Positions 6,460 through 33,840 are shown, counted from the stretch's first letter. The stretch: DNA of 41,093 nt from Candidatus Aenigmatarchaeota archaeon (GCA_016782405.1 JADHYO010000002.1:1-41093), one strand, 5' to 3'. Notes: generated by a model from the letters alone, not told the origin. A program made the numbers and translations.

Positions 6460-7653
6460 TTAGGAGGACTTCTTTTTCATTGCTTTCAATTGACGTTCGT
6501 ACTTCTCCACCCACTTCTCTGCGTCCTCCACACCTTTCTGGGAGTTACCAACCCCGCAGGTGTTTCCAACCCCGACAATCAAAACCTTACTCCCTTTCTT
6601 CACGTTTTCCAAGCTCCTCCCAATACTCTCAATCACCTTTGGATACGCGCTTATAATCGCCCTTTTAAGTGGTTCAATAGCCTCTTCAGATGACATCTTA
6701 ACAATAATAGAATCAAGCGGAATCCCACTCTTCACTGCAGCCTCTTCAATATAATTCCTCTCAACCCCTATACCTCCCATTGCCACGCCAACACCTTCAG
6801 CCACGCTTCCTGTCTTCTCTCCCTCAAGCTTCGCAGCTGCATCAATAGAAATAATCTTTTGGATCTTGTGCTCCTTCATTAGGTTGTGGATAGCAAGCCC
6901 AGGCCTGCCCAATCTGCCTCCAGGGCCCTTCGCTTTCATAAGGAAAACATCCCTACCATCCATCTCCTTCCTTGAAAGTATAATATCCTCATCCACTTCC
7001 CTCGTCTTCCCGCTCCCAATAAGCCTAGCTACAACATATGGCCCTAAAGCGTCCCCAATAGGCATCCCCTTTGCCATTACCTTTGTGCCCTTGAAAATAG
7101 AGCGCGCCATCCGCTCCACGAGCGGAAGCTGCATCTGCAATATCATTGCAATCTGGAATGATTTAGTCTTCTTAACAATCTCCACATAATGGCGGACAAC
7201 CTTTGTTATTTCATACAAAGTAATTCCCCCAGCCAGCCCCATCTCTATATGGGTCCGCTTCTCCTCAGGCATTTTCGGGGCAACCTGCCCAACAAAATAC
7301 CGGAACCGTTCCCGCTGCCCTTTCACAAGATGTTCTATTTTCCTCACTATCCCCTGTGTGTCCAGGGAAACAGGGCTAATCATAAAGAAATCATAAAACC
7401 TTCCCACAGAATCCCTAATCCTCTTGTCTGGTTTGGGTGAAATCTCCTTCATAATTATAACCTTTGACTCATTTGACATGGTCTCCAAGTCCTTGACCGT
7501 CTTCTCAAGCTTCCACATAATCTGAATGAGCATAATCCTTGGGTAAAATAGGAAAAATACCACTAACAAGACAAACGAAAGTACAAATGATAATGGGTTC
7601 CCATCAAGACCAAGACCAAACTGGAACAGAACATTCTCTACAGGCATAAACAT
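6460..7653 (-). CDS. DUF1512 family membrane-anchored protein
   Basis: N-terminal TM; PIGDALGP, KAKGPGG, IDAAAKLEGEKTGSVAEGVGVAMGG, GVGNTCGVG. Confidence 0.8.
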   Translation of the reverse strand: MFMPVENVLFQFGLGLDGNPLSFVLSFVLLVVFFLFYPRIMLIQIMWKLEKTVKDLETMSNESKVIIMKEISPKPDKRIRDSVGRFYDFFMISPVSLDTQGIVRKIEHLVKGQRERFRYFVGQVAPKMPEEKRTHIEMGLAGGITLYEITKVVRHYVEIVKKTKSFQIAMILQMQLPLVERMARSIFKGTKVMAKGMPIGDALGPYVVARLIGSGKTREVDEDIILSRKEMDGRDVFLMKAKGPGGRLGRPGLAIHNLMKEHKIQKIISIDAAAKLEGEKTGSVAEGVGVAMGGIGVERNYIEEAAVKSGIPLDSIIVKMSSEEAIEPLKRAIISAYPKVIESIGRSLENVKKGSKVLIVGVGNTCGVGNSQKGVEDAEKWVEKYERQLKAMKKKSS

Positions 7654-7714
7654 CACTCGCAATTAACATAATATTGCACTGTTAATATAAATATACAGAT
7701 TCTAAAAAAGAAGT

Positions 7715-8281
7715 ATGCTTGACTGGAAAATCCTTGCAGCTTCCATAGCAGCACTGCTTTTCATCTCGTCCATATTTATTGGTGGTCTTGGCATCCGTGA
7801 CACGTTCTCAGGTATTATAGAAAAAATAAGTGAATACCTGGACACCTCACCATTCACTGGAATGATTCCAGCCGCTGCCCCCAGCGGTGGTAGCGGAGAG
7901 GTCACAATCCTTTTGTCCCCACCTGAACTAACACTTGTCCCAGACTCACCCACCACGCTAAAATCTGGCGAAACCGTGTTCAGTGGTTTCGAGGGCCAAA
8001 TCACCCTAAACCTCCCAGACAAAACAGTGGCTCTGTCCTCAGGTTCCCTGGAAATCACATTCCCTCTTCAATCCCTAGAGCTGGAATCCCTAGAAATCAA
8101 CTCGCTCTCCCTCGAAGGCATTCCCATGGAAATCAAGCCTGAAATCTCAACAGATTCCGGCAACCTCCAACTACAAGGCTTCACAGGCTCTGCCACCGCC
8201 ACCCCCGAGGGCCTCGAGCTCACCGGCAAGGTCTCCAGCCTCCGCGTCACTATCGGAGACCTCAACTTCGAGCTAGTCTAG
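7715..8281 (+). CDS. Hypothetical membrane-anchored protein
   Basis: 188-aa ORF with an N-terminal hydrophobic segment, a beta-rich acidic body and an upstream TATA-like sequence. Confidence 0.65.
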   Translation: MLDWKILAASIAALLFISSIFIGGLGIRDTFSGIIEKISEYLDTSPFTGMIPAAAPSGGSGEVTILLSPPELTLVPDSPTTLKSGETVFSGFEGQITLNLPDKTVALSSGSLEITFPLQSLELESLEINSLSLEGIPMEIKPEISTDSGNLQLQGFTGSATATPEGLELTGKVSSLRVTIGDLNFELV

Positions 8282-8335
8282 TTTTTAAAAACTCCCTTGT
8301 TTAATATCTATCATGCCTCGGTAGCTCAGTAGGTA

Positions 8336-8363
8336 CCTCCTGCAAAAGCAGGTGAGCTTTAAA
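8336..8363 (+). other. Non-canonical D-loop tRNA intron (28 nt; boundary +/-1-2 nt)
   Basis: Removal gives D-loop AGTAGGTA; internal hairpin CCTGC-AAAA-GCAGG; relaxed helix TAGG/TTTA. Confidence 0.7.
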
Positions 8364-8379
8364 GAGCACACGGCTGTTA

Positions 8380-8393
8380 CATTTATGGCAGAC
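8380..8393 (+). other. Canonical 37/38 tRNA intron (14 nt)
   Basis: Central helix CTGT/GCAG followed by bulge AC^A. Confidence 0.85.
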
Positions 8394-8439
8394 ACCGTGT
8401 TGTCGTAGGTTCGAGCCCTACCCGAGGCGCTTATCCAAC

Positions 8440-9258
8440 CTAAGGAAAACCAAGCTCAAGTTGAATGGGGAAATGGTCTGATGGGCTTTGCTCCTTGCCG
8501 TCCTTTCTTTTGTATGTTGAATTCATCACCGAATAATTCTTAAGAAAAGGCTTCAGTCCAGGGGAAACAAAGAAATGATCTATCTGTGGGCTCTGCGCCC
8601 AGCCTAGCCAGTTGGCGTGCGTCGGCTGCTTGTTCCCAAAATGCCCAGCAGCGTCAATAAAATACTTGCTAAGTTCCTTACCACAACCAGCCACATCCAC
8701 ATTCCTCCCAGGGAGAATGTCTGTATTCATATCCCCGAACAGTATAATCCCGTCTTTGTACTGTTCAGGAAACTGTTTTTTGAGCAAACCCATCAACGCA
8801 GCACCTTCCTTTTTCTTGTGTTTCTGGTCCATTGTTGGATCAAGATGTGTGCAGATCAAAATCAATCGTTTCTCCCCAACAACAACCCTTGCCCACACAT
8901 AAGTTGACCACAAATTATTCCCCTTCATCGCAGTCCCGTTGTCCTCAATCTTTCCCCATCCCTGCTCCTCAACAGTGATCCTGGGGGAAACTGCAAGCAC
9001 ATTTATGATCCCCCAGTAAGGCTCGTGTGATTCAGGATAAGCAATAATATTGTAATCCCCACCAAAAGCCCTGGAGAACTGCCCCAAGTTATCAGCTGTA
9101 AACTCCTGTAACCCAAAAACATCTGCTTTTGCCTTTTTGATAACAGAAAAAACCTTTTCCTTGCGGTATTTCCAAGCCACAAGCGGATCTTTATAGCGTT
9201 CAATCACACCTTTATGGTCAGCCAGCACGTTATACGAAAGCAATTTCAGTGAATGCAT
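8440..9258 (-). CDS. Endonuclease/exonuclease/phosphatase (EEP) family protein, CCR4/nocturnin/Angel-like motifs
   Basis: SYNVLA, GLQE, THL, GDMN, IDHFF, PSDHFPI. Confidence 0.88.
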   Translation of the reverse strand: MHSLKLLSYNVLADHKGVIERYKDPLVAWKYRKEKVFSVIKKAKADVFGLQEFTADNLGQFSRAFGGDYNIIAYPESHEPYWGIINVLAVSPRITVEEQGWGKIEDNGTAMKGNNLWSTYVWARVVVGEKRLILICTHLDPTMDQKHKKKEGAALMGLLKKQFPEQYKDGIILFGDMNTDILPGRNVDVAGCGKELSKYFIDAAGHFGNKQPTHANWLGWAQSPQIDHFFVSPGLKPFLKNYSVMNSTYKRKDGKEQSPSDHFPIQLELGFP

Positions 9259-9393
9259 ACCAATCCCTTATCCATTTCTACGCACCAAACCCTTAAATTG
9301 CTTCCCCTAACCCCTTGCTTTTTAATATATTCAGCCAAATCAATTACATTAAACAGTGGGGCGGTAGCTCAATGGGAGAGCACCAGACTGAAG

Positions 9394-9408
9394 CCTTTTT
9401 AGGTTGAA
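9394..9408 (+). other. 37/38 tRNA intron (15 nt) with a poorly paired central helix
   Basis: Removal restores the 7-nt loop CTGAAGA; helix CTGA/GTTG is only partly complementary. Confidence 0.7.
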
Positions 9409-9424
9409 ATCTGGGTGTTGTGAG

Positions 9425-9453
9425 AAGGTGAAAGGAAACTCTCACCTCACAAA
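9425..9453 (+). other. 53/54 tRNA intron (29 nt) with a well-formed bulge-helix-bulge
   Basis: TGTG AG^A AGGTGA...TCACCT CACA AA^T: 4-bp helix TGTG/CACA, two 3-nt bulges, inner helix AGGTGA/TCACCT. Confidence 0.85.
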
Positions 9454-9459
9454 TTCGAT

Positions 9460-9490
9460 ACCTTAACGGAGAAATCCGTTATCGAGAAAC
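9460..9490 (+). other. T-loop tRNA intron (31 nt; exact register uncertain, 59/60 best fit)
   Basis: 31 extra nt in the T-loop, containing hairpin TAACGGA-GAAA-TCCGTTA. Confidence 0.7.
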
Positions 9491-10240
9491 TCTCACCCGT
9501 CCCACTTGTTTTTTAATTATTGATTCTGAGTATAGTTGAACCTTACCTTTAGCGTAAATGTCTCTACATCTTGCCACTTTTAGTAAATGTTTTGGGTTAT
9601 TAAAACCTATCAATTTCATCCATTTTTCTAAATTTCTTTTTCCGTTCAGATCTATTTTATACCCAACATGTTTTTTCCCAGTGCCATCATCAACTATATC
9701 AACATATCTACAAAATGAAAACCCCAAACAATTCAACTCAAATGCAACTTGCTGTATAATGGTTTCACTTTTCAATTTCATGGTTATGGTTGGATAATAT
9801 TTGTATTTTTTATGCCTCTTCTTGAGAGCCAAAGAACCATCGGTATCGTATAAACCCCTAACAAACGGTACTATAAATTTTTTATTTTTTAGTATTATTT
9901 CAGGAATTTTTATATCATTCTTTGGACCTATATTCATTCCCACATCTTTCAGAAAATTAAATAAACCCTTTGATTGGCACCTAACAAAGATAACATTCTG
10001 ATCATTTCTCTGAAAAAGGGTAACATTCATATTGAAGAGTACTTTAAACAATGGAATAATCTTAGACTCAAAGTGAGCTCTATCGTTTATAGAATGACCA
10101 ACAATCTCTATCAACCTTCTTCGTTTATTTTTAGGATCAGTGAAGTCATAAACAGAACCATCACCAATTAAAATCCCTAGAAATTCAGCAAATTCAGGCG
10201 TCATCTTCTTTGGTAATTTCAATTTCATCGCCTTGTTCAT
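9479..10240 (-). CDS. Free-standing two-motif LAGLIDADG (DOD/intein-type) homing endonuclease
   Basis: Motifs AEFLGILIGDG and PFVRGLYDTDG, KIPEII linker; no Cys1/HN splicing domains; visibly AT-richer than flanks. Confidence 0.88.
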   Translation of the reverse strand: MNKAMKLKLPKKMTPEFAEFLGILIGDGSVYDFTDPKNKRRRLIEIVGHSINDRAHFESKIIPLFKVLFNMNVTLFQRNDQNVIFVRCQSKGLFNFLKDVGMNIGPKNDIKIPEIILKNKKFIVPFVRGLYDTDGSLALKKRHKKYKYYPTITMKLKSETIIQQVAFELNCLGFSFCRYVDIVDDGTGKKHVGYKIDLNGKRNLEKWMKLIGFNNPKHLLKVARCRDIYAKGKVQLYSESIIKKQVGRVRVSR

Positions 10241-10282
10241 TACGCTTAAATGTGGGGTATATTTTAATTTGAATTTTCATCA

Positions 10283-10340
10283 CCTTATAGATTTCTAAAC
10301 TATATATATTATAGTGCTTTAACCTTTATAAAGATTTCTA
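10283..10340. promoter_or_regulatory. Divergent promoter region with candidate operators
   Basis: AGATTTCTA twice (10289-10297, 10332-10340), inverted repeat ACTATA-N5-TATAGT (10299-10315), TTTATAAA at 10325-10332. Confidence 0.5.
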
Positions 10341-10355
10341 TGGTATAGTATACAT

Positions 10356-10562
10356 ATGCCCAAGAAAAAGGATTTCCCCCCAGACAGATATCAAGAGGAA
10401 ATACTGAAGATTCTCAAGGAAGAGCCTTTCATGTCCACATCAGAAATCTGCCACAAACTGAATATGGGATACGAAACAGGGCTTAAATACACAAACCAAC
10501 TATTCAATATAAACAGGATAAAACTAAAGAAAGTAGGTAATAGAAGATTTTGGTATTTGTGA
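10356..10562 (+). CDS. Small winged helix-turn-helix protein
   Basis: EEILKILKEEPFMSTSEICHKLNMGYETGLKYTNQL followed by beta wing IKLKKVGNRRFWY. Confidence 0.8.
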   Translation: MPKKKDFPPDRYQEEILKILKEEPFMSTSEICHKLNMGYETGLKYTNQLFNINRIKLKKVGNRRFWYL

Positions 10563-10566
10563 TACC

Positions 10567-11145
10567 ATGCCAAAGAAAATCCCCGAAAAAGAAGCGAAGG
10601 CAAAGTATGCCAAGGAGAAACCAGCAGCCGCAAGGCTGCTCACCAACAAGGTTTTTGTCCCCAAGAACTTCGATCCTTTACTGGAAAAGAATTATGGCAA
10701 ACATTTGAGAGGTGGCCTAGAGCTCGGTCTTGTTGAAGCCCTCTATTTGCTAGAAAAAGGAAAAATAAACATTTCCAAGGAAGGAAAAAAAGTCACGTTC
10801 CAAAAGCTGTTAGAACATGCCCTGAAAAAAGACAAAAGAATCCACGAGAAGCTGGCGGTATATAGCGACCTCCGCGACCGCGGACTTGTAGTCAAGACAG
10901 GCTTCAAATTCGGTTGCGACTTCCGCGTTTACCAGCGAGGCGTCGGGGTTAAGCGCGGTCCAAAAGCCCCAGGAGAACATACAAAATGGATTGTCTACGC
11001 TGTCCCTGAAGATTACAAATGTTCCTTCCAGGAACTATCCCGTGCCGTTAGATTGGCACATTCAATCCGGGCTAGAATGTTGTGGGCACTTGTTGATAAT
11101 GAGGCTGATGTCACATTCTTCGAAGTGATGCGTCTCAAACCTTAA
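10567..11145 (+). CDS. endA: tRNA-intron endonuclease (EndA, single-unit type)
   Basis: LGLVEALYL, VYSDLRDRGLVVKTGFKFGCDFRVY, GEH, RLAHSIR, C-terminal RLKP. Confidence 0.93.
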   Translation: MPKKIPEKEAKAKYAKEKPAAARLLTNKVFVPKNFDPLLEKNYGKHLRGGLELGLVEALYLLEKGKINISKEGKKVTFQKLLEHALKKDKRIHEKLAVYSDLRDRGLVVKTGFKFGCDFRVYQRGVGVKRGPKAPGEHTKWIVYAVPEDYKCSFQELSRAVRLAHSIRARMLWALVDNEADVTFFEVMRLKP

Positions 11146-11169: not shown

Positions 11170-11370
11170 ATGGGAAGAATAAAAAGCGTTGCTATCAAGA
11201 CACTGGGAAACGACCTAATAGCCAAACACGGCAAGCGTTTCTCAGATAATTTTGATACAAATAAGAAGGTCCTAAGGGAAGTGAAGCCAATAGAATCAAA
11301 GTATGTTCGCAACGTCCTCGCCGGTTATATTACCAGAAGGGTCCAGATATTGAAGAGAAGGGAAATCTGA
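11170..11370 (+). CDS. rps17e: 30S ribosomal protein S17e
   Basis: MGRIKS...FSDNFDTNKK...SKYVRNVLAGYITR. Confidence 0.95.
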   Translation: MGRIKSVAIKTLGNDLIAKHGKRFSDNFDTNKKVLREVKPIESKYVRNVLAGYITRRVQILKRREI

Positions 11371-19531: not shown

Positions 19532-20479
19532 ATGCGCATCTCAAAGCTGCTGCCGCTAATAGGAATCGCAATATTCATCTACTTACTGCTTAACATAGAC
19601 CTCCCAAAGGTCGCTGATATTCTCCTAAGGACAAGCATACTATTTTTCAGCGTTGCAATTGTAATCACACTGGTAGACATAGTACTGAAAGCGTTCAAGT
19701 GGCAGCTGATATTCAATTCCTACAGCATCCCAGTCAAATTTTCCCGCTTCCTCAGCTCCTGGATTGTAGGACTCTCCCTTAGCATGATTACCCCAGGGAA
19801 GGTGGGAGACTTTGCAAAAGCCTACTACCTCAGGGATAAAGCCCCTCTAGGCAAGGGCCTAACCACAGTCATGGCAGACCGCATAATAGACCTGCTCACA
19901 CTTTTCGTATTAGCTATCATAGGACTCTCAATCTTTGCTACAATGTACACCCAGGACAATGCCCTCCTAATAACAACATATGCACTGTTCGCCGCATTTG
20001 TCCTTGTCATAATAATATTCTCCAAAAAGAGCATAGCCTCTGCAATACTTCGGCCATTCTACCGCCGCCTTGTCCCGGAGAAAAAGAAAGAAAAACTAAA
20101 GTCAATCTATAATGATTTTTACGCAGGCATAGGACTAATCCTTGGGAAGAAAAAACTGCTTACAGTAGTAGTACTAATAACATTCCTAATATGGTTCGGA
20201 ACAATCATGGTAATCTATTTCATCTCCCTTTCTTTAGGGTTTGAAATACCATTACATTTCCTTCTGATAGTCATCCCAATCATAACACTGCTAGAGGCCC
20301 TGCCAATCTCTTTCTCTGGAGTCGGAACTAGAGACGCAACCATGATTTTCTTCTTTGGTTTCATTGGAATAAGTGCAGAGGCCTCTGTTTCCATATCACT
20401 ACTCTACTTGCTGACAAGTTATATTTTTGTCTTTATTGGTTTCCTGATATGGTACAAAAACCCTATCCAGCGCAGCTAA
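19532..20479 (+). CDS. Lysylphosphatidylglycerol synthase TM / UPF0104 flippase-like membrane protein
   Basis: Multi-TM; KAFKW, TPGKVGDFAK, DRIIDL, LPISFSGVGTRD. Confidence 0.85.
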   Translation: MRISKLLPLIGIAIFIYLLLNIDLPKVADILLRTSILFFSVAIVITLVDIVLKAFKWQLIFNSYSIPVKFSRFLSSWIVGLSLSMITPGKVGDFAKAYYLRDKAPLGKGLTTVMADRIIDLLTLFVLAIIGLSIFATMYTQDNALLITTYALFAAFVLVIIIFSKKSIASAILRPFYRRLVPEKKKEKLKSIYNDFYAGIGLILGKKKLLTVVVLITFLIWFGTIMVIYFISLSLGFEIPLHFLLIVIPIITLLEALPISFSGVGTRDATMIFFFGFIGISAEASVSISLLYLLTSYIFVFIGFLIWYKNPIQRS

Positions 20480-20829
20480 TCTTTGAGCTCAAGCTCGCTG
20501 TCCTGTACATATTCCAATCCACGCTTAAGCGCCAGATAAGCCTTCTCAAGCTCAACCCCCATGTCAGCTGCGTGATCCAGCCTGGAAATCATCCCCTCTT
20601 TAATTAGTGTGAAGTATATCTCTATTGGGTGCTTCCCAGTAATCTTGGCCCTGAGTTTGTGATCATTTGTACAAAAACCAACCTCAATGGTTCCATCCTG
20701 GTGGTTCACCCTGATAAGAAAATAACCATTTGGATCAAGGACCCATTCACCGCGCTCAGCCTGAAACTCCTTCATCCCTTCTGCCACAGAAATGTCCCAC
20801 CATTTTCCAGCTATCTTTTCCTCTCCCAT
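20476..20829 (-). CDS. DUF4346 domain protein
   Basis: LDPNGYFLI, ISRLDHAADMGVELEKA, YVQD. Confidence 0.75.
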   Translation of the reverse strand: MGEEKIAGKWWDISVAEGMKEFQAERGEWVLDPNGYFLIRVNHQDGTIEVGFCTNDHKLRAKITGKHPIEIYFTLIKEGMISRLDHAADMGVELEKAYLALKRGLEYVQDSELELKD

Positions 20830-20920
20830 GAGAATCCCTTAGTATGATACAACCTGTTATATTTATATGCTTTGCCCCAAACCCGGCAATTCTTTATAAG
20901 CTGGAACAAATACTAAAACC

Positions 20921-21853
20921 ATGAAGCTAGTCATTACCATCCCCGCTTACAATGAGGAAGAAACAATAGGCAAAGTCATTGACGAAATCCCGAAGAAAAT
21001 CAAGGGAATCAAAAAAATCCGTGTGCTGGTCATTGACGACGGATCCTCAGACAGTACAGCAAGTGTTGCAAAAAAGAAGGGGGCCACAGTCCTTCGTAAT
21101 AAGAAGAACCTTGGCCTCGCCACAACATTCAAGCGTGGCCTTGAAAAAGCCCTGGACATGGGAGCAGATATAATTGTTAATACAGATGCAGATCTCCAGT
21201 ACAACCAACAACAAATCCCCGCTCTGGTAGCCCCTGTTCTTGCCGGCGAAGCTGACCTGGTTTTAGGCTCCCGCTTCCGTGGCAGTATTGAGTATATGCC
21301 TCTCCAGAAAAAATGGGGCAACCGCCTAAGCAGTTGGATAGTAAGAAGGGTCTCAGGTCTCCCAATATCAGATGCACAAACAGGCTTCCGAGCATTTTCC
21401 AGGGAAGCAGCCTTGCGGATGAACATCCAGTCCACATACACATATACCCAAGAAACCATCCTCCAGGCAGCAGCAGCAAATTTGGTAGTAAAAGAAATCC
21501 CAATTGAATTCCGAAAACGCGAGGGAAGTTCCCGCCTAATTTCAGGCATTTTAAACTACGCAGCCCGCGCTGGAGCAACCCTCGTAATAGGATATCTAAA
21601 TCACAAACCGCTTCGCGTTTTTCTTGGCGTTGGCGGACTTTTCTTCCTGGCAGGCTTTATCCTTGGCATGAAAGTCCTCCTTCACTTTATTGCAACTGGT
21701 CTGGTCTCCCCATTCATCCCTACAGCAATACTAACAGCCATACTCCTCATCTTCGGCTTCCAAATAATCATGATAGGACTACTTGCAGAGATGATAAAAA
21801 ACAAGAGAAGCATTGAGGAAGAAATCTTATACAGGATGAAAGCAGGCAAGTAA
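20921..21853 (+). CDS. GT2 glycosyltransferase with two C-terminal TM helices (DPM1/AglJ-like)
   Basis: IPAYNEE, IDDGSSD, DADLQY, GSRF, DAQTGFRAF. Confidence 0.92.
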   Translation: MKLVITIPAYNEEETIGKVIDEIPKKIKGIKKIRVLVIDDGSSDSTASVAKKKGATVLRNKKNLGLATTFKRGLEKALDMGADIIVNTDADLQYNQQQIPALVAPVLAGEADLVLGSRFRGSIEYMPLQKKWGNRLSSWIVRRVSGLPISDAQTGFRAFSREAALRMNIQSTYTYTQETILQAAAANLVVKEIPIEFRKREGSSRLISGILNYAARAGATLVIGYLNHKPLRVFLGVGGLFFLAGFILGMKVLLHFIATGLVSPFIPTAILTAILLIFGFQIIMIGLLAEMIKNKRSIEEEILYRMKAGK

Positions 21854-21948
21854 ACAGTTTAATCAGTGAAACCCCTTGGGGGAACCATTTTATATTCATT
21901 GCAACCAGAAAACACTATGCACACTTCAGTCGCAAAGAGGATTTGGTC

Positions 21949-23391
21949 ATGAAGCTTGAAAAAATAACAAACCGCCCAGAAGAAATAGTAATTATTTCAG
22001 TTATAATTTTCATCCTCATCTACACGTTCACATTCCCTTCATACTTTGCTTCTGTTGATGAGCACGAATACATCAGAAACGCGTTCCTCCTGCAGAAAGG
22101 AACCCTCACAGAACCAGAACCAACAAATGTGTGCACAGGTCGTTTCAATGGCGAAGGTTGGGTATCCCAATATTTTATCGGGCGCTCAATATTCCTCATC
22201 CCATTTACCTGGCTCGGTTTTGGTGTAGTGATGCTCTCTGGCCTCATTATACACCTGCTTAATCTCCTGCTTGTGTACAAAATATTCCCAAGACTTGGTC
22301 ATTCCCCACTATATTCACTCCTTTACCTGCTCTTCCCTGCGTTTCTATGGGAAGCAAGAACACTGAACAGCGAGCTTCTGGTCTTGACAGCGATCCTTGC
22401 AGGTGTATATTTTTATCTTTCTAACAAACCCCGTTCCTTGGCCATTTCAGGCTTGTTTTTCACACTTGCTCTCCTGGTGAGGCAGGAAGCTGCCCTCATA
22501 GCAGCAGTATTTCTCTTAATCCCACTTATTCAGGATAGAAAGAAGTTCCTCTTCATGCTCCTTGGTGTTATCCCAGCAGCAGTCCTGCTTCTAGGAGTAA
22601 ACCAGCTCTTTTATGGCGGTCTTGTCTCATCAGGCTACGGAAACCCGCTACTGTTTGCTCTAAACATTGGCACAAAGGATATTTTCCTCCTCAATATCGG
22701 AAAGTTCATCATACTGTTGGCAGTGGCCTATCCCCTGATGATTTTATCACCATTTGTCACAAAGAGTCCAATAAGAAAAGAGGTCATCCTCTCCACAGCT
22801 GCGTATATCATATTCTATGCCCAGAACGCCTCTGTGTGGATATACCCATTCCTCCACCCCACTGCTGTAACTGGTCAGTTGCGCTACCTCATTCCTGTTA
22901 TAGGACTCCTCATCCTCACATATCCCCCGCTATTTGAGCGTGCCCTCAACAAGATCCGATTGCCCCCAAAGGCAGTTCTCCTCTCCCTGGCAGGAGTGTT
23001 ATTCCTGGCAGCCATTGTAGCATCCTCCATTCACGCCTCATTCCTGGATGGGAGATACGCAACATTCCAGGCAATCCACGAAAACACAGAACCCAACTCC
23101 CTGTTGATAGGCAGCTCTGATGACTGCAACTACGTATTGAACAATCTCTTTGACAGAAGAGCATACCTTGACGTGGGTAACGAGCAAATAAACAGCTTTC
23201 TCAGCCAATATGAAAACATCTATGTGCTTGACATCAGCTACACAACAGTTGATTACTCCTCTTCAAGAGGCCAGCTCATCTCCAAAGAGCGCGCACAAAT
23301 CAGCGACTTCCTGGAATTCCATAAGGATGAGCTTGAACTGGTATTCGAATCAGAAGAGCCCAACCATGTGAGAATATACCGCTTCACCTGA
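21949..23391 (+). CDS. GT-C fold membrane glycosyltransferase (PMT/ArnT-like)
   Basis: DE motif after first TM (VDEHEY), about 11-13 hydrophobic segments, RYLIP, soluble C-terminal domain. Confidence 0.7.
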   Translation: MKLEKITNRPEEIVIISVIIFILIYTFTFPSYFASVDEHEYIRNAFLLQKGTLTEPEPTNVCTGRFNGEGWVSQYFIGRSIFLIPFTWLGFGVVMLSGLIIHLLNLLLVYKIFPRLGHSPLYSLLYLLFPAFLWEARTLNSELLVLTAILAGVYFYLSNKPRSLAISGLFFTLALLVRQEAALIAAVFLLIPLIQDRKKFLFMLLGVIPAAVLLLGVNQLFYGGLVSSGYGNPLLFALNIGTKDIFLLNIGKFIILLAVAYPLMILSPFVTKSPIRKEVILSTAAYIIFYAQNASVWIYPFLHPTAVTGQLRYLIPVIGLLILTYPPLFERALNKIRLPPKAVLLSLAGVLFLAAIVASSIHASFLDGRYATFQAIHENTEPNSLLIGSSDDCNYVLNNLFDRRAYLDVGNEQINSFLSQYENIYVLDISYTTVDYSSSRGQLISKERAQISDFLEFHKDELELVFESEEPNHVRIYRFT

Positions 23392-25924: not shown

Positions 25925-26033
25925 CAACCAACACATCAACAATAAACAAGAACAGGAAGTACCTTTTTATATATAACCTTCATAGTATTATGAAAAAACA
26001 GAGCCCCATCATCAGTAAAAGGGTGATTAGATT

Positions 26034-26990
26034 ATGTATGATTTGAAAGGAAAAAACGTAATGGTGACTGGCGCAAGTGGTTTTACTGGTTACCATCTTT
26101 GCAATGAGTTGGTTAAGGAAGGGGCCAATATAATAGCTTTTGTTCGAGGGAGCAGCGATATAAATGGCATTAAGGATTTGAATGGGGTTAAAATAGTGTA
26201 TGGGGACATGACAGACATTTCCAGCATATACAGAGCAATAAAGTATTCCAATACTGAGTTTGTTTTCAATTGCGCTGCAGTAGTTCCTGTAATGGGAGCA
26301 AGAGACATTCCAATGAACACTGTGGCTGTTAATACTCAGGGGGTTTTCAATCTTTCTTGGATATGCAGCGAACTTGATGTTAAGAGGATTGTTCAAATTT
26401 CAACATGCCACATATATGGCAATCATCCAGAGTCAGAGCTCCCTTTGACAGAGGAAGCCACACCAACACCCGAAGACATTTATTCCTCATCAAAATTTAG
26501 CGGAGAAATTATGTTGAAACATTTCATAAACAACGGGTTAGATGCTGTAATTACAAGAGCATTCAATCTCTTTGGTGCAAAGCAACGATCTGAATTCTTT
26601 ATACCAGAAGTCATTAAGCAGGTGGCCGAAGAAAAGAAAAAAGAACTTGTTGTTGGAAACATAACAACAACAAGGGATTATACATACGCCCCAGAGATTG
26701 TCAGGGGATATATCATGGCCATGAAGATGGGTAAGGTTGGTAATATTTACCAATTCTGTTCTGGTAATGAAATTAAAATGAGTGCTTTGATCGATAAGAT
26801 AATTGAGGCACTAAACGAGGTGACAAAGCAGAATTACCAACCTGAAATAATCTCAAGAAACCCAAGGAAGAACGACATCAATAGAATGTACGGCACCTAC
26901 AAGAAAGCTAAGAACGAGTTTGGGTGGGAACCTGAAATAAGTCTGGAGGATGGTCTAAGGAAAACAATAAGTGAAACTTATGTGGGGTAA
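26034..26990 (+). CDS. NAD-dependent nucleotide-sugar dehydratase/reductase (GDP-mannose 4,6-dehydratase-like SDR)
   Basis: VTGASGFTG, YSSSK, RAFNLFG, RDYTY; GGGTGA SD upstream. Confidence 0.87.
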   Translation: MYDLKGKNVMVTGASGFTGYHLCNELVKEGANIIAFVRGSSDINGIKDLNGVKIVYGDMTDISSIYRAIKYSNTEFVFNCAAVVPVMGARDIPMNTVAVNTQGVFNLSWICSELDVKRIVQISTCHIYGNHPESELPLTEEATPTPEDIYSSSKFSGEIMLKHFINNGLDAVITRAFNLFGAKQRSEFFIPEVIKQVAEEKKKELVVGNITTTRDYTYAPEIVRGYIMAMKMGKVGNIYQFCSGNEIKMSALIDKIIEALNEVTKQNYQPEIISRNPRKNDINRMYGTYKKAKNEFGWEPEISLEDGLRKTISETYVG

Positions 26991-26992
26991 AA

Positions 26993-27994
26993 ATGAGAGA
27001 AATTGGCAGGTTTACAGCAGTTGGGATATTGTCCACTGCTATTTCTTGGGTCATATTCCTGATGTTCTCTGACATCATAGGCTTCCCGGCTGTTATAGTT
27101 GCGATGGCATACACCCCATTTAATTTTTTGTGGCGATTCTATGCTGAGAAGAAATGGGTTTTCAGGCCACCGAAAGAAGGAAATAACTCAATCATTGGTT
27201 TATTCGATACTATAAACAGTGGTATTCGAGCCTACTCAATAGAGCTACACAAAGAAATAGGTGGGGAGCGGATAGATTTCAGCCGATTATATTTTAAATA
27301 TAAAGGTGAGAAAGATTGTTTCAGGTCAAGCGACAAAAGAATTTCATTCCTAAGACCAATGGTCATACCAAAGGGGGACAAAGTATATTTCAATATTTAT
27401 GATTCCAGAATTACACTTGCTGCCCTTCCCACATTACTTATTAGCAAGTTCTTAGGGAAAAGAATAATAGGGATAGCCCACCATACCAGCAACAGGAAAG
27501 TGGTGTTTATAGAGAACACCCCCTTCAATAAAGTGTTCCCAAACTTCATTTTCGATGAATACATAACACACAAAAAAGGAGTAGTTATAAACAACAAGAA
27601 AACAACATTTCGGGATATGTCGGTGGGTTATAAAAAAATATCGTTAAGTAAAAACGCTTGCAGAAAAATGCTTAAAATCCCGGAAAATGCTAATGTTACT
27701 CTAATATTCGGTCACATACGGCCATACAAGAACATAGAGAAATTCGCTGAATGGTTTGTTAACAATGCAAAAAAAGGTGATATGCTGTTGATTGCTGGAA
27801 AGAAATGGTATGATATAAAGCTCCCGGTAAGTAATAAGATCGAAATAAGAGACACGTTCGTTCCAGACAACGAAGTGCCGATGTACTTCAATGCTGCGGA
27901 CAATGTAGCAATACCCTATGATAAGCGGGAATCTGCATTGTACTACCTGTCAAAAAAATACAAAAAAAAGGTAATTGAAGGAAATTTGCATTAG
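26993..27994 (+). CDS. GtrA-like N-terminus fused to a divergent, apparently C-terminally shortened GT4 domain
   Basis: RFTAVG...NFLW...KKWVF (GtrA-like); FGHIRPYKNIE, LLIAG, FVPDNEV..YFNAAD..IPY (GT4). Confidence 0.6.
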   Translation: MREIGRFTAVGILSTAISWVIFLMFSDIIGFPAVIVAMAYTPFNFLWRFYAEKKWVFRPPKEGNNSIIGLFDTINSGIRAYSIELHKEIGGERIDFSRLYFKYKGEKDCFRSSDKRISFLRPMVIPKGDKVYFNIYDSRITLAALPTLLISKFLGKRIIGIAHHTSNRKVVFIENTPFNKVFPNFIFDEYITHKKGVVINNKKTTFRDMSVGYKKISLSKNACRKMLKIPENANVTLIFGHIRPYKNIEKFAEWFVNNAKKGDMLLIAGKKWYDIKLPVSNKIEIRDTFVPDNEVPMYFNAADNVAIPYDKRESALYYLSKKYKKKVIEGNLH

Positions 27995-28001
27995 GCGTGT
28001 A

Positions 28002-28072
28002 TTCTGCCCCAGTTATTGTCGGTTTCCGTAGATGCGAACACCACCACGGGTTGAACGCCCTGTTTTTAAAGA
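28002..28072. repeat. Degenerate direct-repeat copy of 29151-29227 (5' part of the acyltransferase gene)
   Basis: Shares TTCTGCyCCAGTTATTGT, CCGTAGATGCGAACACCAC, TTGAAC and CCTGTTTTTAAAGA with 29151-29227. Confidence 0.9.
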
Positions 28073-28080
28073 GTTAATTC

Positions 28081-28743
28081 TCACACTTTACTCTTACCCA
28101 CTTTCAAAATATAGAAGTAATTATATGTATTTTCTTTGTACCTATACTGCCTTACTATTTTGATATTATTGTAGTTTAATACGTCCTCTAAGTTCTGCTT
28201 GGTTGTTTTTTCCAACTCCCAGAAGTGATATTTAGATTTAGGGTTGTGATTTCTTATCGGGAGTTCTACTATGAAATTCATCTTTGGTGTCAAAAATCTA
28301 TATGCCTGAGTACAGACCGGGAGGCTGACAATAATGTAGTTCGAATAGTGCCTTAACTTTTCAAAAAGTTGTGAAATATGACTAAATGGCATATGCTCTA
28401 GGACCTCGAATAAGCAAACCACATCAAACTTTTTTGAACTTTCAAAACCTCTAATATCGGAGATTATGTCTGGATTTCTGTTCTTGTCAACATCTAGTGT
28501 TGTCACTTCTATCCCCGCTGACTTCAGATAGTTGCTAAGGAAGCCTGTCCCTATTCCAACTTCGAGTACGCTTTTTGGTTTCAAATTGACTATTTCTCTT
28601 ATTTGTTTCCAGTAAGATTTGAACTTGTTTAAGTCATCATACTTCACTATATCAATAGAGTCATTTGAAATATTACTTGGCTTTGTTGTAATCCTCCCAT
28701 TATCTTCATCTACTTTCAGTTTCCAATTAAGGGTATTGGTCAT
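28081..28743 (-). CDS. Class I SAM-dependent methyltransferase
   Basis: VLEVGIGTG, TTLD, FDVVCLFEVLEH. Confidence 0.88.
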   Translation of the reverse strand: MTNTLNWKLKVDEDNGRITTKPSNISNDSIDIVKYDDLNKFKSYWKQIREIVNLKPKSVLEVGIGTGFLSNYLKSAGIEVTTLDVDKNRNPDIISDIRGFESSKKFDVVCLFEVLEHMPFSHISQLFEKLRHYSNYIIVSLPVCTQAYRFLTPKMNFIVELPIRNHNPKSKYHFWELEKTTKQNLEDVLNYNNIKIVRQYRYKENTYNYFYILKVGKSKV

Positions 28744-29240
28744 TCCTTCCCCCTGAGTGGGAGTCCAAATTCACCACAGAATGCTTTCATTCTTTTTAGT
28801 TTAAAATAATGCTCTTTATCTCGGTATTTCAGAATCTTGCAATTGTCCCCTACTATAGCCAATGGCGGTATTTCCCCATGCACGTTCACACCTAGAGCTA
28901 TTATCACACCTTCACCTATTTGAGTTCCTGGGGAGATATTTACATTCATTCCTATCCAGACATTTTCACATATTGTTACATGTTTTAAGATCAGGTTCTC
29001 ATCAAAAGGTAATAGACCCCCTTCGTAAACATGACTATTTGAGTATATTGTGACATTTCTGCTGATTTTTGTGTTGTCCACTATTAATCCACCTTTAGCA
29101 GCTATCCAAGCACCTTCAGCTATAACCACATTGTCCCCTATTTCCATGTCTTCTGCTCCAGTTATTGTTGATTTCCCGTAGATGCGAACACCACTACCAC
29201 AGGATTTGAACATCCTGTTTTTAAAGATTTTTATGGCCAT
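28740..29240 (-). CDS. Hexapeptide-repeat (left-handed beta-helix) sugar acyltransferase
   Basis: IGDNVVIAEG, ICENVWIGMNV, IGEGVII repeats. Confidence 0.85.
   Translation of the reverse strand: MAIKIFKNRMFKSCGSGVRIYGKSTITGAEDMEIGDNVVIAEGAWIAAKGGLIVDNTKISRNVTIYSNSHVYEGGLLPFDENLILKHVTICENVWIGMNVNISPGTQIGEGVIIALGVNVHGEIPPLAIVGDNCKILKYRDKEHYFKLKRMKAFCGEFGLPLRGKE
29151..29227. repeat. Coding copy of the 28002-28072 repeat
   Basis: By-eye alignment to 28002-28072. Confidence 0.9.
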
Positions 29241-29435
29241 GATTTGGTCTCCCTTTCCAATATCACTTGATTCATCAGGTCTTTAATATCTGGCTCTGAT
29301 ATCAATCCCTGGATTTTTAAAATAATTAATTTTACTCTTTAAAACAAACACATAATTTCAAGTGGGGTCTGAAAGGTTTCTAATCAGTATCATAGCAGCC
29401 TACTCATAATGACTTGGGTAAAAAATGTCTTTAGG

Positions 29436-29451
29436 GCTTAAATATTTAAGC
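29436..29451. promoter_or_regulatory. Perfect 16-bp palindrome forming back-to-back TATA-like boxes
   Basis: GCTTAAATATTTAAGC between divergent genes, ending 21 nt before the ATG at 29473. Confidence 0.5.
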
Positions 29452-29472
29452 ACCAACGCTTTTGATTAAGCC

Positions 29473-30624
29473 ATGAAAATAGCAATAAATGCACCTTTTA
29501 GTGATCCTATAAAGGGAGCGGTCGTAATAAGAATCAATAGCTGGAGGGAACATTTCGAAAGAAATGGCTGCACCGTGGATATTTTAACCCCCTACAAACA
29601 CAGGACCCATAATGACGCCCAAAAAAGAATAATAAGATATAAAAACGAAATTGATTTGATTGCAGTTATAATAAAAAACAAATATGATGTTATTATCGGA
29701 ACCTCTCCACCAATGACCCACTCCTTCGTATCGATGATTGTCTCCAAATTAACTGGGAAAATGTTTATTCTTGATGTGAGGGATATATGGACTAATTCAT
29801 TGAAACAATTAAAACAAAAGTCAACAAGAAGCATTAAATTCAACATATATTCCTTGATTGAAAAGCTATGTTACAAATTCTCAGATAAAATATTTATTGT
29901 GGAATCCTTTATGTCGGATATAATAGTAAAAAAAACTCCAATAAAAAGAGACAAGATAATACTCGTCCCACACGGATCTAATAGCGAGCTTTTAAAAAGG
30001 GTACCCAAAGAAGCAGATAAAATTAGGAAAAAACTAGGAATCCCAAGAAAAGCGCCGGTTCTTGTATATTGTGGTGGTATGGGGGATGAAGATTTGGAAA
30101 TGATGCTCAAAAACATCTCTACACCAATTCTTGAAAAGAACGATGTTCACATACTATTCATTATAGCCATCCATAAGAACATAGTCTCTGACAACTTGTT
30201 AAATGGCATTTTAGAAATTGTGAAGAGTAGAAAAATCAAGAATTTCCATTTGGTAAAAAATATTGAGTATTCCAATGTTTGTAATTATCTTTCAGTTGGT
30301 GATATAGCATTGCAACCACTCAGAGATTCACTAAAGGAGTACACTACGCAAAAAACTTATGATTATATGGCTTGCGAATTACCCATTTTTACAAGGGCTT
30401 CCCCACAGGGGAACCTGAAAAAGCTTATGGATAAATATGACATTGGTTATTTTGCATCTGATTGGGATGAATTCAATAAAAATCTGGTGATAGCGCTCCG
30501 GGAAAAGAATAAATCCAGAAAAAAAGGAATTACAGGAAGAAAGATAATAAAATCCAAATTCTCCAGGACCCTCTCCACTAAAATCGCCTTAAAAGAAGTT
30601 CAGGATCAGCTTAAATCCTTTTAA
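29473..30624 (+). CDS. GT4 glycosyltransferase
   Basis: TSPP, LDVRDIW, LVYCGG, KTYDYMACELPI. Confidence 0.82.
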   Translation: MKIAINAPFSDPIKGAVVIRINSWREHFERNGCTVDILTPYKHRTHNDAQKRIIRYKNEIDLIAVIIKNKYDVIIGTSPPMTHSFVSMIVSKLTGKMFILDVRDIWTNSLKQLKQKSTRSIKFNIYSLIEKLCYKFSDKIFIVESFMSDIIVKKTPIKRDKIILVPHGSNSELLKRVPKEADKIRKKLGIPRKAPVLVYCGGMGDEDLEMMLKNISTPILEKNDVHILFIIAIHKNIVSDNLLNGILEIVKSRKIKNFHLVKNIEYSNVCNYLSVGDIALQPLRDSLKEYTTQKTYDYMACELPIFTRASPQGNLKKLMDKYDIGYFASDWDEFNKNLVIALREKNKSRKKGITGRKIIKSKFSRTLSTKIALKEVQDQLKSF

Positions 30625-30712
30625 TATTGACGAGTATGATAAAATACTGCAAAGGGTGCGAAATATTCAGAAAAAAGCGCTGGGATAAGAGCAAGTGGTT
30701 CAAGGTTGTGAA

Positions 30713-31585
30713 ATGAACATGAAAACCAGATTGGGGGTTACAGGCAGCGGTGGATTCGTCGGATCACATCTTAAAAACAATTCCAGTAGCTTTCCTTCAG
30801 TTGAAAGTGTCGAGTGTTTTGATAGTAAAAATGCCAGCTTGTTCGATATTGAATCAATTAAACCTTTTGTTAAGGACAAGAATGTGATATTCCACATTGC
30901 CGGCGCTACCAAGGCGGAGCCCGACGAATTAATGAAAGTGAATCTCCTAGGAACAGGAAATCTCCTGGAAGCAGTGAGAAAATATTCTGAAAACAAAGTC
31001 AAAATAATATTCACGTCATCTTGTTATGTTTACGCCCCAACCAAAACCCCATCCAAAATCAATGAAAACAGCGCTCTTGCCCCCCAGAACATTTATGGTC
31101 TGACAAAAAAATTCGCAGAAGAGTTGCTTGAGAAATACCATAGAGATTATGGAATTGACTTCCTTACACTAAGGCTCACCAACACATATGGTCCACTGTG
31201 CTACCCAAACAAGCAATCCATCGTAGCAACAATAATAGATTCCACACTTAGAAGCAAACATTTTACAATTCATGGCGATGGTAGCAGAATGATAGACCTG
31301 ATATTTGTGAAGGATATTATCGAGGCATTTTCAAAATCACTATCATACAATGGGAAGAAGAAGATTTTCAACATATGTACCGGCAACCCTGTATCAATAA
31401 GCGATATTATAGCTCTAACTGAAAAAATCACCAATAGCAAGCTCAAAACACAGTGCCAAAAACAACCATCCTCTGGTTTTTTGATATCTGACCCCGACCT
31501 TGCAGCAAAAGAACTTGGTTTTTCCTCATCCACAACCCTGGAAGACGGTCTATCTCAAACAATTAAATGGCTAGAACAAATATGA
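30713..31585 (+). CDS. NAD-dependent epimerase/dehydratase
   Basis: VTGSGGFVG, SSCYVY, YGLTK, RLTNTYGP. Confidence 0.88.
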   Translation: MNMKTRLGVTGSGGFVGSHLKNNSSSFPSVESVECFDSKNASLFDIESIKPFVKDKNVIFHIAGATKAEPDELMKVNLLGTGNLLEAVRKYSENKVKIIFTSSCYVYAPTKTPSKINENSALAPQNIYGLTKKFAEELLEKYHRDYGIDFLTLRLTNTYGPLCYPNKQSIVATIIDSTLRSKHFTIHGDGSRMIDLIFVKDIIEAFSKSLSYNGKKKIFNICTGNPVSISDIIALTEKITNSKLKTQCQKQPSSGFLISDPDLAAKELGFSSSTTLEDGLSQTIKWLEQI

Positions 31586-31695
31586 TATATTAGAAACAGG
31601 GTAAACAAATTAAAGGCCCGCAATACAGTAAAGAAACCACGGTTAGGGCTGGGAATATATAATTGAACAGATGTAAACGTTTATAGTGTGGTAAC

Positions 31696-33030: not shown

Positions 33031-33129
33031 TTCAACCCATCTTTATCAGAAATATGATCAACATTTAACCACACCATTTCGATAATAGCGTGTATTTGAA
33101 TATAATCAACTATTCTTCAATGGTGTTGT

Positions 33130-33840
33130 ATGAAAGATGTTATGAAAATTGCAGATAGTATTGAAGGGTGGTTAAGCCCAAATGAAAAAACATTTCTCTA
33201 TAATGTTGCAAAAAACTGCTCAGGTAAGGGGGTCATTGTTGAGATTGGTTCATGGAAAGGAAAATCAACAGTGTTGCTCGCAAAAGGATCAGAAGCGGGT
33301 AAAAGGATCGCGGTCCATTCTATAGATCCTCACACAGGAAGCCCTGAACATATAAAGCGGTATGGAAAGGTCAATACGTTCAACGAGTTCAATCGGAATA
33401 TCAAGAAGGCAGGTGTGGCAAGTATTGTAAAGCCTTTAAGAAAAACATCAGAACATGCGCATGATAATTGGAAACACCCCATTGAACTCTTATGGGTTGA
33501 TGGGTCTCACGAATATGATATGGTCCTCCTGGATTTTCAGCTCTGGGAGCCAAATCTCGTGAGCGGCGGCGTCATCGCGTTCCATGACACCACACTTCAT
33601 GAAGGGACAAGAAAATTCATTCAAAACAACTTTTTTCAGTCAAAGAATTTTACTGGAATCCGGCTGCTGGATTCAATCATTTATGCAAAAAAGGTTGACC
33701 ATCTTACCTTCTCTCAGAAAATGGGAAATTACGTGCAACGCGTTAGGTTCAGGACGCATATTTTTATAGACTCCCTACCATACCCCATCCGGAAGGTTGG
33801 TGTCTTTCTCTTTGGGAAGAGGAAAAATCCTATTGTTTAA
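33130..33840 (+). CDS. Class I SAM-dependent methyltransferase (Methyltransf_24-like)
   Basis: IEGWL, VEIGSWKGKST, SIDPH, VDGSHEY, GGVIAFHD. Confidence 0.9.
   Translation: MKDVMKIADSIEGWLSPNEKTFLYNVAKNCSGKGVIVEIGSWKGKSTVLLAKGSEAGKRIAVHSIDPHTGSPEHIKRYGKVNTFNEFNRNIKKAGVASIVKPLRKTSEHAHDNWKHPIELLWVDGSHEYDMVLLDFQLWEPNLVSGGVIAFHDTTLHEGTRKFIQNNFFQSKNFTGIRLLDSIIYAKKVDHLTFSQKMGNYVQRVRFRTHIFIDSLPYPIRKVGVFLFGKRKNPIV

Follow-up and report, generated by a model that had tools for sequence, protein, structure and literature searches.

A mosaic locus in Candidatus Aenigmatarchaeota: two intron-rich tRNA genes beside an EndA paralogue, an orphan gene and a probable selfish LAGLIDADG cassette

Why do two tRNA genes crowded with introns, a homologue of the enzyme that removes such introns, a homing-type nuclease, a small winged-helix protein and a phosphoesterase-fold protein lie together within 2.8 kb of an archaeal genome? 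The locus belongs to a member of Candidatus Aenigmatarchaeota, and a sequence-only reading had taken it for an integrated module that couples the gain or spread of tRNA introns with their tolerance. The window, by which we mean the whole stretch of 41,093 nucleotides that was analyzed, is contig C28 of the genome called G000 here (625 kb in 28 contigs, 65% completeness); in the labels used for comparison G stands for a related genome, L for a fetched locus and C for a contig, and G001 is of the same genus as G000. All six components of the cluster were found: tRNA-Asn, a gene of the endonuclease/exonuclease/phosphatase (EEP) fold, tRNA-Phe, a LAGLIDADG gene, a winged helix-turn-helix (wHTH) gene and a gene for a 192-amino-acid paralogue of the splicing endonuclease, called EndA192 below. 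To this extent the earlier description of a six-part cluster was sound, as borne out by Pfam, by splicing in script followed by ARAGORN and, for the wHTH protein, by the fold of an AlphaFold model. Nor is the arrangement an artifact of assembly, since contigs from an independent second study match positions 7600-10972 letter for letter in overlapping pieces, with a gap at 9107-9197, and over the matched positions they contain neither joints nor a variant lacking the cassette formed by the LAGLIDADG and wHTH genes. The interpretation is another matter. The stretch is probably a mosaic, in which an old neighborhood of tRNA, EndA and ribosomal genes has received two unrelated insertions, and not a dedicated intron system. 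Its backbone, old in Candidatus Aenigmatarchaeota, would be orf188, tRNA-Asn, tRNA-Phe, EndA192, ribosomal protein S17e and then a CBS/S30AE gene; the first insertion would be the orphan EEP-fold gene between the two tRNAs, found in G000 only, and the second a compact and presumably selfish LAGLIDADG-wHTH cassette that abuts the 3′ end of tRNA-Phe in tail-to-tail orientation.

The backbone is established by synteny. Neighborhoods of EndA192 (10567-11145, plus strand) were taken from 20 related genomes and then from 80 further named loci. In the first set the right-hand anchor, the gene for ribosomal protein S17e (11170-11370, plus strand, identified by Pfam), stands directly 3′ of EndA192 in 16 of the 20 loci, the remainder being one contig that is too short and three rearranged loci. 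The left-hand anchor is a conserved flanking gene without a Pfam family (orf188; 7715-8281, plus strand); in 9 of the 20 loci a homologue of it precedes the tRNAs and EndA192, and DUF1512 together with orf188 is found upstream of EndA192 wherever the contig extends far enough. Between orf188 and EndA192 the relatives carry tRNA-Asn and tRNA-Phe, as located by ARAGORN and windowed spliced alignment. Both tRNAs lack introns and adjoin EndA192 in G022 and G029; other relatives have one to three introns at varying positions in tRNA-Asn or tRNA-Phe, with no nuclease gene nearby. Among the 80 further loci, tRNA-Phe(GAA) was recognized by ARAGORN upstream of EndA192 and on the same strand in at least 32, mostly without introns, and homologues of the LAGLIDADG, wHTH and EEP genes were present in 5, 1 and 0 loci, respectively. 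Because the order tRNA-Asn, tRNA-Phe, EndA192, S17e is kept without introns, the linkage of tRNA and EndA must be regarded as ancestral and intron-independent.

The EEP-fold gene (8440-9258, minus strand, 272 amino acids; PF03372 Exo_endo_phos, 3e-12) has no place in that shared order. A homologue was found in 1 of the 41 related whole genomes, namely G000 itself, and in none of the 80 further EndA192 loci. A search of 1.84 billion representative proteins gave seven at E<=1e-10 including the protein itself, the best of the six relatives being 34% identical; in the Atlas the clusters closest to it consist of bacterial EEP proteins, and a word-index search returned the query as its sole hit, the clusters of the distant relatives being without informative names. 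Only the general PF03372 model is passed: against TIGR00633, the branch of exonuclease III and apurinic/apyrimidinic endonucleases, the score is 22.5 bits, below the cutoff of 99, and matches in the Protein Data Bank are weak and include a mannosyl-6-phosphatase. The G+C fraction of the gene is 0.49, as against about 0.43 for the contig. On these grounds of similarity and composition we read the EEP gene as an unrelated, lineage-specific acquisition between the two tRNAs, and its proposed membership in a module, as an enzyme that heals RNA ends, is not supported.

The second insertion is of a different kind. The predicted endonuclease gene (9479-10240, minus strand) is intact and free-standing and encodes a single chain of 253 amino acids that matches LAGLIDADG_3 (PF14528, 6e-7) with 30.0 bits against a cutoff of 22.5. 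The final 26 nucleotides of its open reading frame (ORF) are shared, in tail-to-tail orientation, with the 3′ end of tRNA-Phe, and its stop codon, on the strand opposite the tRNA, falls inside the tRNA-Phe intron at 59/60. Single-chain LAGLIDADG enzymes are defined by two helices, each of which closes in a catalytic acidic residue, and the translation has two such motifs, one around residue 25 (ILIGDGS) and one around residue 140 (LYDTDGS), both with the acidic residue. Weak matches were obtained to I-DmoI and to 2dch, a putative homing endonuclease from an archaeon, and where NCBIfam models of helicase, IF-2 and RtcB are hit, it is in their intein portions. The G+C fraction is 0.36 for the LAGLIDADG gene and 0.36-0.39 for the LAGLIDADG-wHTH stretch. 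The partner gene (10356-10562, plus strand) encodes 68 amino acids; HTH_24 is matched below cutoff (19.2 versus 21.9 bits), and the AlphaFold model (mean predicted local distance difference test score 86.7) has the winged-helix order H-E-H-H-E-E, with Foldseek template-modeling (TM) scores of 0.74-0.84 to AspA, the ArsR/SmtB-type proteins CzrA/CadC, HlyU and SSV1 F-112. Between the two divergent genes lies a control region (10241-10355, assigned to neither strand) with repeats at 10286-10304 and 10329-10347 and a palindrome at 10295-10314. By eye, an inverted repeat of the type CTCTATA..TATAGAG and a TATA-like box are present upstream of wHTH in most of 14 other cassettes; from this conservation we propose that the wHTH protein would probably repress both cassette genes at the palindrome between them.

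The distribution of the pair across the phylum is patchy and shows decay. Strong wHTH homologues (E<=1e-10, 47-72% identity) were found in 17 other genomes of 371 searched, in several families; at the looser threshold of E<=0.001 a match is found in 18 of 44 genomes of family f27 and in 2 of 46 of the window's own family, f1. Of the 17 loci, 8 have a LAGLIDADG gene, or what remains of one, in divergent orientation upstream of wHTH, and beyond these 8 there is one wHTH locus with a weak LAGLIDADG_3 match. At one further locus (L172:259-1500, in G290:C125) the partner of the wHTH homologue is a 413-amino-acid protein with the homing endonuclease associated repeat (PF18780), which replaces LAGLIDADG. 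Two genomic contexts recur. The window's own order (tRNA-Asn, tRNA-Phe, LAGLIDADG on the minus strand, wHTH on the plus strand, EndA192) is seen again in G314, with an intact LAGLIDADG gene of 58% identity, and in G214 and G220; in GW2011_AR5 (G213) the LAGLIDADG gene is broken into fragments, and in G221, G212, G236 and G223 the wHTH gene persists with LAGLIDADG no longer detectable. The other context places the same divergent pair after tRNA-Met(CAT), in G235, G234 and G218, and as a remnant in G227. In the first three of these EndA192 is on a different contig from the cassette. EndA192 was not found in G314 (70% complete), where only a 402-amino-acid EndA form was seen; in this genome, of the same family as G000, S17e comes directly after the cassette with a gap of 260 nucleotides (L159, in G314:C10). 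Finally, in G001 tRNA-Phe is about 95 nucleotides from EndA192 with no cassette between, and neither a LAGLIDADG nor a wHTH homologue was found anywhere in that genome. Intact, broken and lost copies together with clean empty sites are the pattern expected of the homing-endonuclease life cycle. Since all of these are seen here, the two genes are, judged by sequence, a selfish and mobile two-gene cassette. It follows from the tRNA-Met copies that are off the EndA192 contig, and from G314, that the components are not linked as a system, although one part of the module idea did hold: the LAGLIDADG-wHTH pair is a real unit that docks on tRNA genes and has T-loop introns enriched beside it.

Docking on tRNA genes is a property of the LAGLIDADG family at large. 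Homologues are present in 29 of the 41 related genomes, at no more than 39% identity to the window's protein. The sample in which docking was counted comprised 31 loci with 33 free-standing ORFs, 11 of the loci taken automatically and 20 chosen from the hit table by E-value, leaving aside weaker hits and hits in open frames of about 580 amino acids or more, which are intein-like. For 15-16 of the 33, ARAGORN called a tRNA that overlaps the ORF's 3′ end or lies no more than 100 nucleotides from it, the uncertainty being one doubtful "tRNA-Stop" call; the same was true of 5 of 593 control ORFs of at least 150 amino acids in G000, which gives a binomial probability of 7e-23, a value that overstates independence because the genomes are related. 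The family adjoins tRNA genes far above chance. Twelve of the docked ORFs are codirectional with the tRNA and four lie tail to tail to it, as in the window. In four of the codirectional cases (L053, L055, L059 and L070) the stop codon of the ORF is the tRNA's own T8-A9-G10, and in L069 it is one base off; with the stop codon inside the tRNA, those four loci have no room for a separate tRNA promoter. Reading by eye adds multi-intron tRNAs beside LAGLIDADG ORFs that ARAGORN misses. A LAGLIDADG tree, made from a quick search only, is too divergent to relate clades to tRNA identity except for pairs such as L053 and L070, both at tRNA-Thr(CGT). At L047/L106 (G038:C3, another family), a LAGLIDADG gene 31% identical to the window's occupies the same conserved cluster, tail to tail against tRNA-Asn and between it and the tRNA that adjoins EndA192. 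A literature search found no published case of free-standing LAGLIDADG genes abutting archaeal tRNA genes, with the proviso that supplementary tRNA tables may bear on this.

What of the introns? Neither tRNA is found in the raw window by ARAGORN (with and without intron mode, at lowered thresholds) or by Rfam at gathering scores. Once the five introns are cut out by coordinates, ARAGORN returns perfect cloverleaves for a tRNA-Asn(GTT) of 73 nucleotides and a tRNA-Phe(GAA) of 72, so that the earlier count of five introns in two tRNAs, three of them at noncanonical positions, proved right. The tRNA-Asn gene (8315-8429, plus strand; exons 8315-8335, 8364-8379 and 8394-8429, by ARAGORN on the spliced form) has intron-free orthologues at the equivalent place in five loci (L032, L034, L035, L036 and L037). 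Its D-loop intron at 21/22 (8336-8363, 28 nucleotides; 8335-8362 at 20/21 would give an equal product) has a relaxed bulge-helix-bulge (BHB) motif, with a central helix of 4/4 pairs, two of them G-U, and no outer helices; introns at this position are likewise found in G013 and G028. The canonical 37/38 intron (8380-8393, 14 nucleotides) has a strict BHB, with outer helix 5/5, central helix 4/4 and bulges of 3 nucleotides. The tRNA-Phe gene (9358-9504, plus strand; exons 9358-9393, 9409-9424, 9454-9459 and 9491-9504) carries three introns. The canonical one at 37/38 (9394-9408, 15 nucleotides) has a weak BHB, its outer helix being 5/5 and its central helix only 2/4; that at 53/54 in the T arm (9425-9453, 29 nucleotides) has a good motif of the hBH type, central 4/4 and inner 5/5; and that at 59/60 in the T loop (9460-9490, 31 nucleotides) uses the T stem as its outer helix (5/5) with a central helix of 3/4, the BHB forming once the 53/54 intron has been removed. 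In the first model, which is the one that ARAGORN accepted, the third intron was placed at 60/61. That position gives a poor BHB, and when all splice registers were tested 59/60 fitted far better. The revised model is supported instead by G001: the spliced T loop, TTCGATT, is identical to the one in the tRNA-Phe of G001, which has no introns, and the 3′ half agrees too, which is independent support for 59/60. An exact 12-nucleotide direct repeat (9435-9446 and 9486-9497), by which the 53/54 intron copies the junction of the 59/60 intron and the 3′ strand of the T stem, may be a trace of intron origin.

Five introns in two tRNAs are nothing unusual in G000, where T-arm introns appear to be present in at least 12 tRNA genes. 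ARAGORN in intron mode finds 18 tRNAs in the whole of G000, 12 with an intron call, at least one of these being spurious (an intron of 1706 nucleotides). A strict scan for split T arms places 59/60 introns in 7 further tRNAs and 53/54 introns in 4 further, next to 15 intact T arms; these counts depend on the strict filter, the loose scan having been flooded with false hits, and among the calls with both positions occupied that of the window's tRNA-Phe alone was accepted, the others having long spans and weak T loops. None of these 11 other tRNAs is adjoined by a LAGLIDADG gene. Indeed, the only LAGLIDADG sequences in G000 besides the window's are in an MCM protein and in a second free-standing gene. 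The former is an MCM-like ORF of 1766 amino acids with apparently two inteins that have LAGLIDADG-type endonuclease domains (L041:4408-9708, in G000:C11). The latter (L042:3273-4322, in G000:C7) encodes 349 amino acids with an N-terminal HTH_3 and lies between Spt5/NusG and L11, with no tRNA seen adjoining it. As for the spurious call, a supposed tRNA-Trp with a 1706-nucleotide intron at 20306-22102 of the window, it covers ordinary protein genes and was rejected. Elsewhere in the window, positions 26000-34000 are low in G+C (0.34-0.40, versus about 0.45 for the rest).

Which enzyme, then, would remove such introns? EndA192, which had been taken for an EndA of broad specificity, is an alpha-type member of the family (PF02778, 6e-13; PF01974, 5e-27) and scores 100 bits against TIGR00324, where the cutoff is 59.6. 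Aligned to the M. jannaschii EndA (1a79), it keeps the Tyr and the His of the catalytic triad and has Ala at the position of Lys156, and this Ala is invariant in 21 of 21 EndA192 orthologues. Because the Tyr-His-Lys triad is incomplete, we file EndA192 as an EndA-family paralogue of unproven activity and not as a catalytic EndA. A Lys-rich insert between Tyr and His is conserved in all of the orthologues, and in ARMAN-2 EndA a loop needed for broad specificity lies in the corresponding region, according to the available parts of two reports (PMC12397907, PMC5829648). EndA192 may serve as a structural partner, may be a specialized enzyme whose lysine has moved, or may survive as a relic that binds RNA. 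It occurs in 23 of the 41 relatives and was not found in 18, and a long EndA form occurs in nearly all. In G000 that long form is a protein of 391 amino acids encoded on another contig (L043:3773-4948, in G000:C20), residues 10-391 of which align to 12-387 of 4fz2 with an E-value of 3e-104, and it has the stretch VAHGVKK at the position of the triad Lys. By homology, the relaxed motifs are likely to be substrates of this epsilon2-type EndA. The available text of the ARMAN-2 study describes experiments in which relaxed motifs, a 59/60 intron among them, were cleaved by the three-unit EndA (PMC3239211). The introns of the window would most likely be excised by this ARMAN-2-type three-unit EndA and rejoined by RtcB, and the EEP protein would be needless. 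A look for RNA sequencing runs that contain the stretch listed none. RtcB is encoded on contig C5 of G000 (the match, at G000:C5:8089-9432 with E 2e-167, has one in-frame TAG within it). RtcB ligates 2′,3′-cyclic phosphate and 5′-OH ends directly. With RtcB in the genome, a route through EndA and RtcB is thus available that requires no end-healing phosphoesterase.

Several observations weigh against the mosaic reading. T-loop introns are present in 6 of 9 tRNA-Phe genes that bear the cassette and in 6-8 of 49 cassette-less ones that a scan placed upstream of EndA192, 2 of the 8 cassette-less T-arm calls being doubtful (introns of 69 and 78 nucleotides); among the cassette-bearing genes, both T-loop introns are found in G000, G314 and AR5, and 59/60 only in G221, G212 and G236. 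All three tRNA-Met genes that face a cassette have T-arm introns: both in L167, 59/60 in L169 and 53/54 in L171. Within the genus, cassette and introns are both present (G000) or both absent, G001 lacking the cassette and all three of the tRNA-Phe introns. These associations hint that cassette and introns are perhaps not fully independent. EndA192, for its part, is highly conserved and always follows tRNA-Phe, and a functional reason for that linkage is possible. Kinship among the compared genomes also has to be reckoned with, in that all these counts exaggerate the number of independent events.

A reading that would accommodate these facts is collaborative homing, an addition to the mosaic reading and not a replacement for it. 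By this account the LAGLIDADG protein would cut within the T arm, or close to it, in tRNA-Phe (or tRNA-Met) genes that have no introns; the 53/54 and 59/60 introns would split the site and render their carrier immune; and repair from the carrier would bring over the cassette along with the 3′ portion of the tRNA gene and its introns, so that BHB introns would spread at the level of DNA. Besides the enrichment at tRNA-Phe, the tRNA-Met cases and the G000/G001 contrast, it can be said for it that the two introns would bracket six central bases of the inverted repeat of the T arm, a plausible LAGLIDADG site. However, all four combinations of cassette and intron exist, and the covariation of introns with nuclease on which the sequence-only reading turned gives a mixed picture. 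The T arm opposite an intact LAGLIDADG gene is uninterrupted in G214 and G220, as it is at five of six other tail-to-tail LAGLIDADG loci without wHTH (L045, L046, L047, L050 and L057). Conversely, L081 carries both the 53/54 and the 59/60 intron, with a T loop like the window's (TTCGAT), 68 nucleotides from EndA192 and with no cassette; L080, L087, L096 and L108 carry 59/60; and a search with 34 LAGLIDADG and 15 wHTH queries found no cassette remnant in the eight cassette-less loci with T-loop introns. Intron sequences are unlike between families, the counts are not phylogenetically independent, and the 11 other G000 tRNAs with introns at these positions, as noted above, have no adjoining LAGLIDADG gene. 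The available text of the ARMAN-2 study identifies 53/54 and 59/60 as hot spots in that organism as well (PMC3239211). A link between nuclease and introns is possible, but that the cassette targets the T arms of tRNA-Phe and tRNA-Met, with the twin T-loop introns as a co-converted immunity device, is in our estimation an unlikely, if attractive, proposition. The tRNA-Phe beside the broken LAGLIDADG gene of GW2011_AR5 (L126:965-1288) has, by eye, four introns, at about 27/28, in the variable region, at 53/54 and at 59/60.

Much less probable is that a plasmid or virus of the integrase type once had the tRNA as its attachment site and left the insert beside tRNA-Phe as a remnant, the LAGLIDADG and wHTH genes being leftover cargo. 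tRNA genes are the classical integration sites of archaea, and the wHTH fold resembles pNOB8 AspA and SSV1 F-112. The insert, however, measures about 1.06 kb, has two ORFs only and no integrase, and is not flanked by a repeat of the 3′ part of the tRNA; alignments in search of a leftover tRNA-Phe half near the cassette scored at null level; and the two-gene unit recurs at two different tRNAs without further cargo. Also in its favor is a recombinase-type element beside the tRNA-Thr of Caldiarchaeum, which the available text of its report proposes as a cause of intron gain (PMC3293823). We give least credence of all to the integrated module itself, in which EEP would heal RNA ends, LAGLIDADG spread the introns, wHTH exert control and EndA192 provide tolerance, all as one tRNA-intron system: its parts are close together in G000 alone, and the recurrence of the LAGLIDADG-wHTH pair upstream of EndA192 in several genomes speaks for it, but the EEP gene is found nowhere else in the 41 genomes and 80 loci, the order of tRNA and EndA192 persists without introns or nuclease, cassette and EndA192 occur one without the other, and RtcB leaves end healing unnecessary. 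For the most part, then, relatives do carry the same introns without the nuclease and have the components unlinked elsewhere, which is what the sequence-only reading had itself named as the outcome that would tell against it.

The mosaic reading leaves a locus that reveals no dedicated intron system and yet offers a testable case, that of a probable selfish endonuclease and its putative regulator joined to the end of an intron-rich tRNA gene, with a same-genus allele without cassette and introns and decayed copies in other genomes. The cassette, its putative regulator, the docking on tRNA ends and the partial association with T-loop introns are worth following up. How archaeal tRNA introns came to occupy so many noncanonical positions is an open question, for which intron transposition and protection against integrating elements have been proposed. 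Should the homing proposal be true, selfish DNA endonucleases would be one engine of the unexplained spread of noncanonical tRNA introns in DPANN archaea, to which Candidatus Aenigmatarchaeota belongs, and today's introns without a nuclease would be the footprints of lost cassettes.

Of the closest known systems, two come from phages. Phage T4 SegB is reportedly a free-standing GIY-YIG homing endonuclease in a tRNA gene cluster that practices "intronless homing". It shares with the present case a stand-alone endonuclease gene set between conserved genes, near tRNAs and patchy among relatives; it differs in that the gene here is of the LAGLIDADG family, on a cellular archaeal chromosome, with a wHTH partner and an overlap with the tRNA end. 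F-CphI and the group I intron of cyanophage psbA are said to exemplify collaborative homing, and the present locus resembles them in setting a free-standing endonuclease gene next to one with an intron that could interrupt the target site. The introns of the present locus, in contrast, are BHB introns spliced by protein, their association with the nuclease is incomplete, and both cleavage and immunity are putative. With archaeal LAGLIDADG enzymes borne by introns (the I-DmoI type) or by inteins the window's gene shares the protein family (LAGLIDADG_3), but it lies outside any intron or intein, is free-standing and is on the strand opposite to the tRNA.

Two further archaeal systems bear comparison. 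In Caldiarchaeum subterraneum a 1.8-kb recombinase-encoding element at tRNA-Thr left a tRNA fragment behind (Sugahara et al. 2012, PMC3293823); on the evidence of the available part of that paper it resembles our case as a mobile element at a tRNA gene that is linked to intron gain within a population, and it differs in that a LAGLIDADG endonuclease is encoded here and no tRNA fragment was found. ARMAN-2 was described in 2011 as having twin introns at the same two T-loop positions, relaxed BHB motifs and a three-unit EndA (PMC3239211, in its available text), all of which G000 shares. The differences are that G000 belongs to Aenigmatarchaeota, that the tRNA is tRNA-Phe with a third, canonical intron, and that a homing-endonuclease cassette adjoins the gene, of which the available text on ARMAN-2 makes no mention (PMC3239211). 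The epsilon2 EndA of ARMAN-2 (4fz2, 9w2k) has a full-length match in the 391-amino-acid protein of G000, but the gene for that counterpart lies outside the window, and the window's EndA192 is a separate alpha-type paralogue. A search of main texts in the literature found no published second EndA in Aenigmatarchaeota, and the available text on ARMAN-2 reports none for that organism (PMC3239211), whereas G000 has two. Four EndA architectures have been published, the epsilon2 type being known from the ARMAN-1/2 group only, as far as the available part of the source goes (PMC5829648); an ARMAN-2-type EndA accompanied by a conserved second EndA without the catalytic lysine is, by that account, a misfit with all four.

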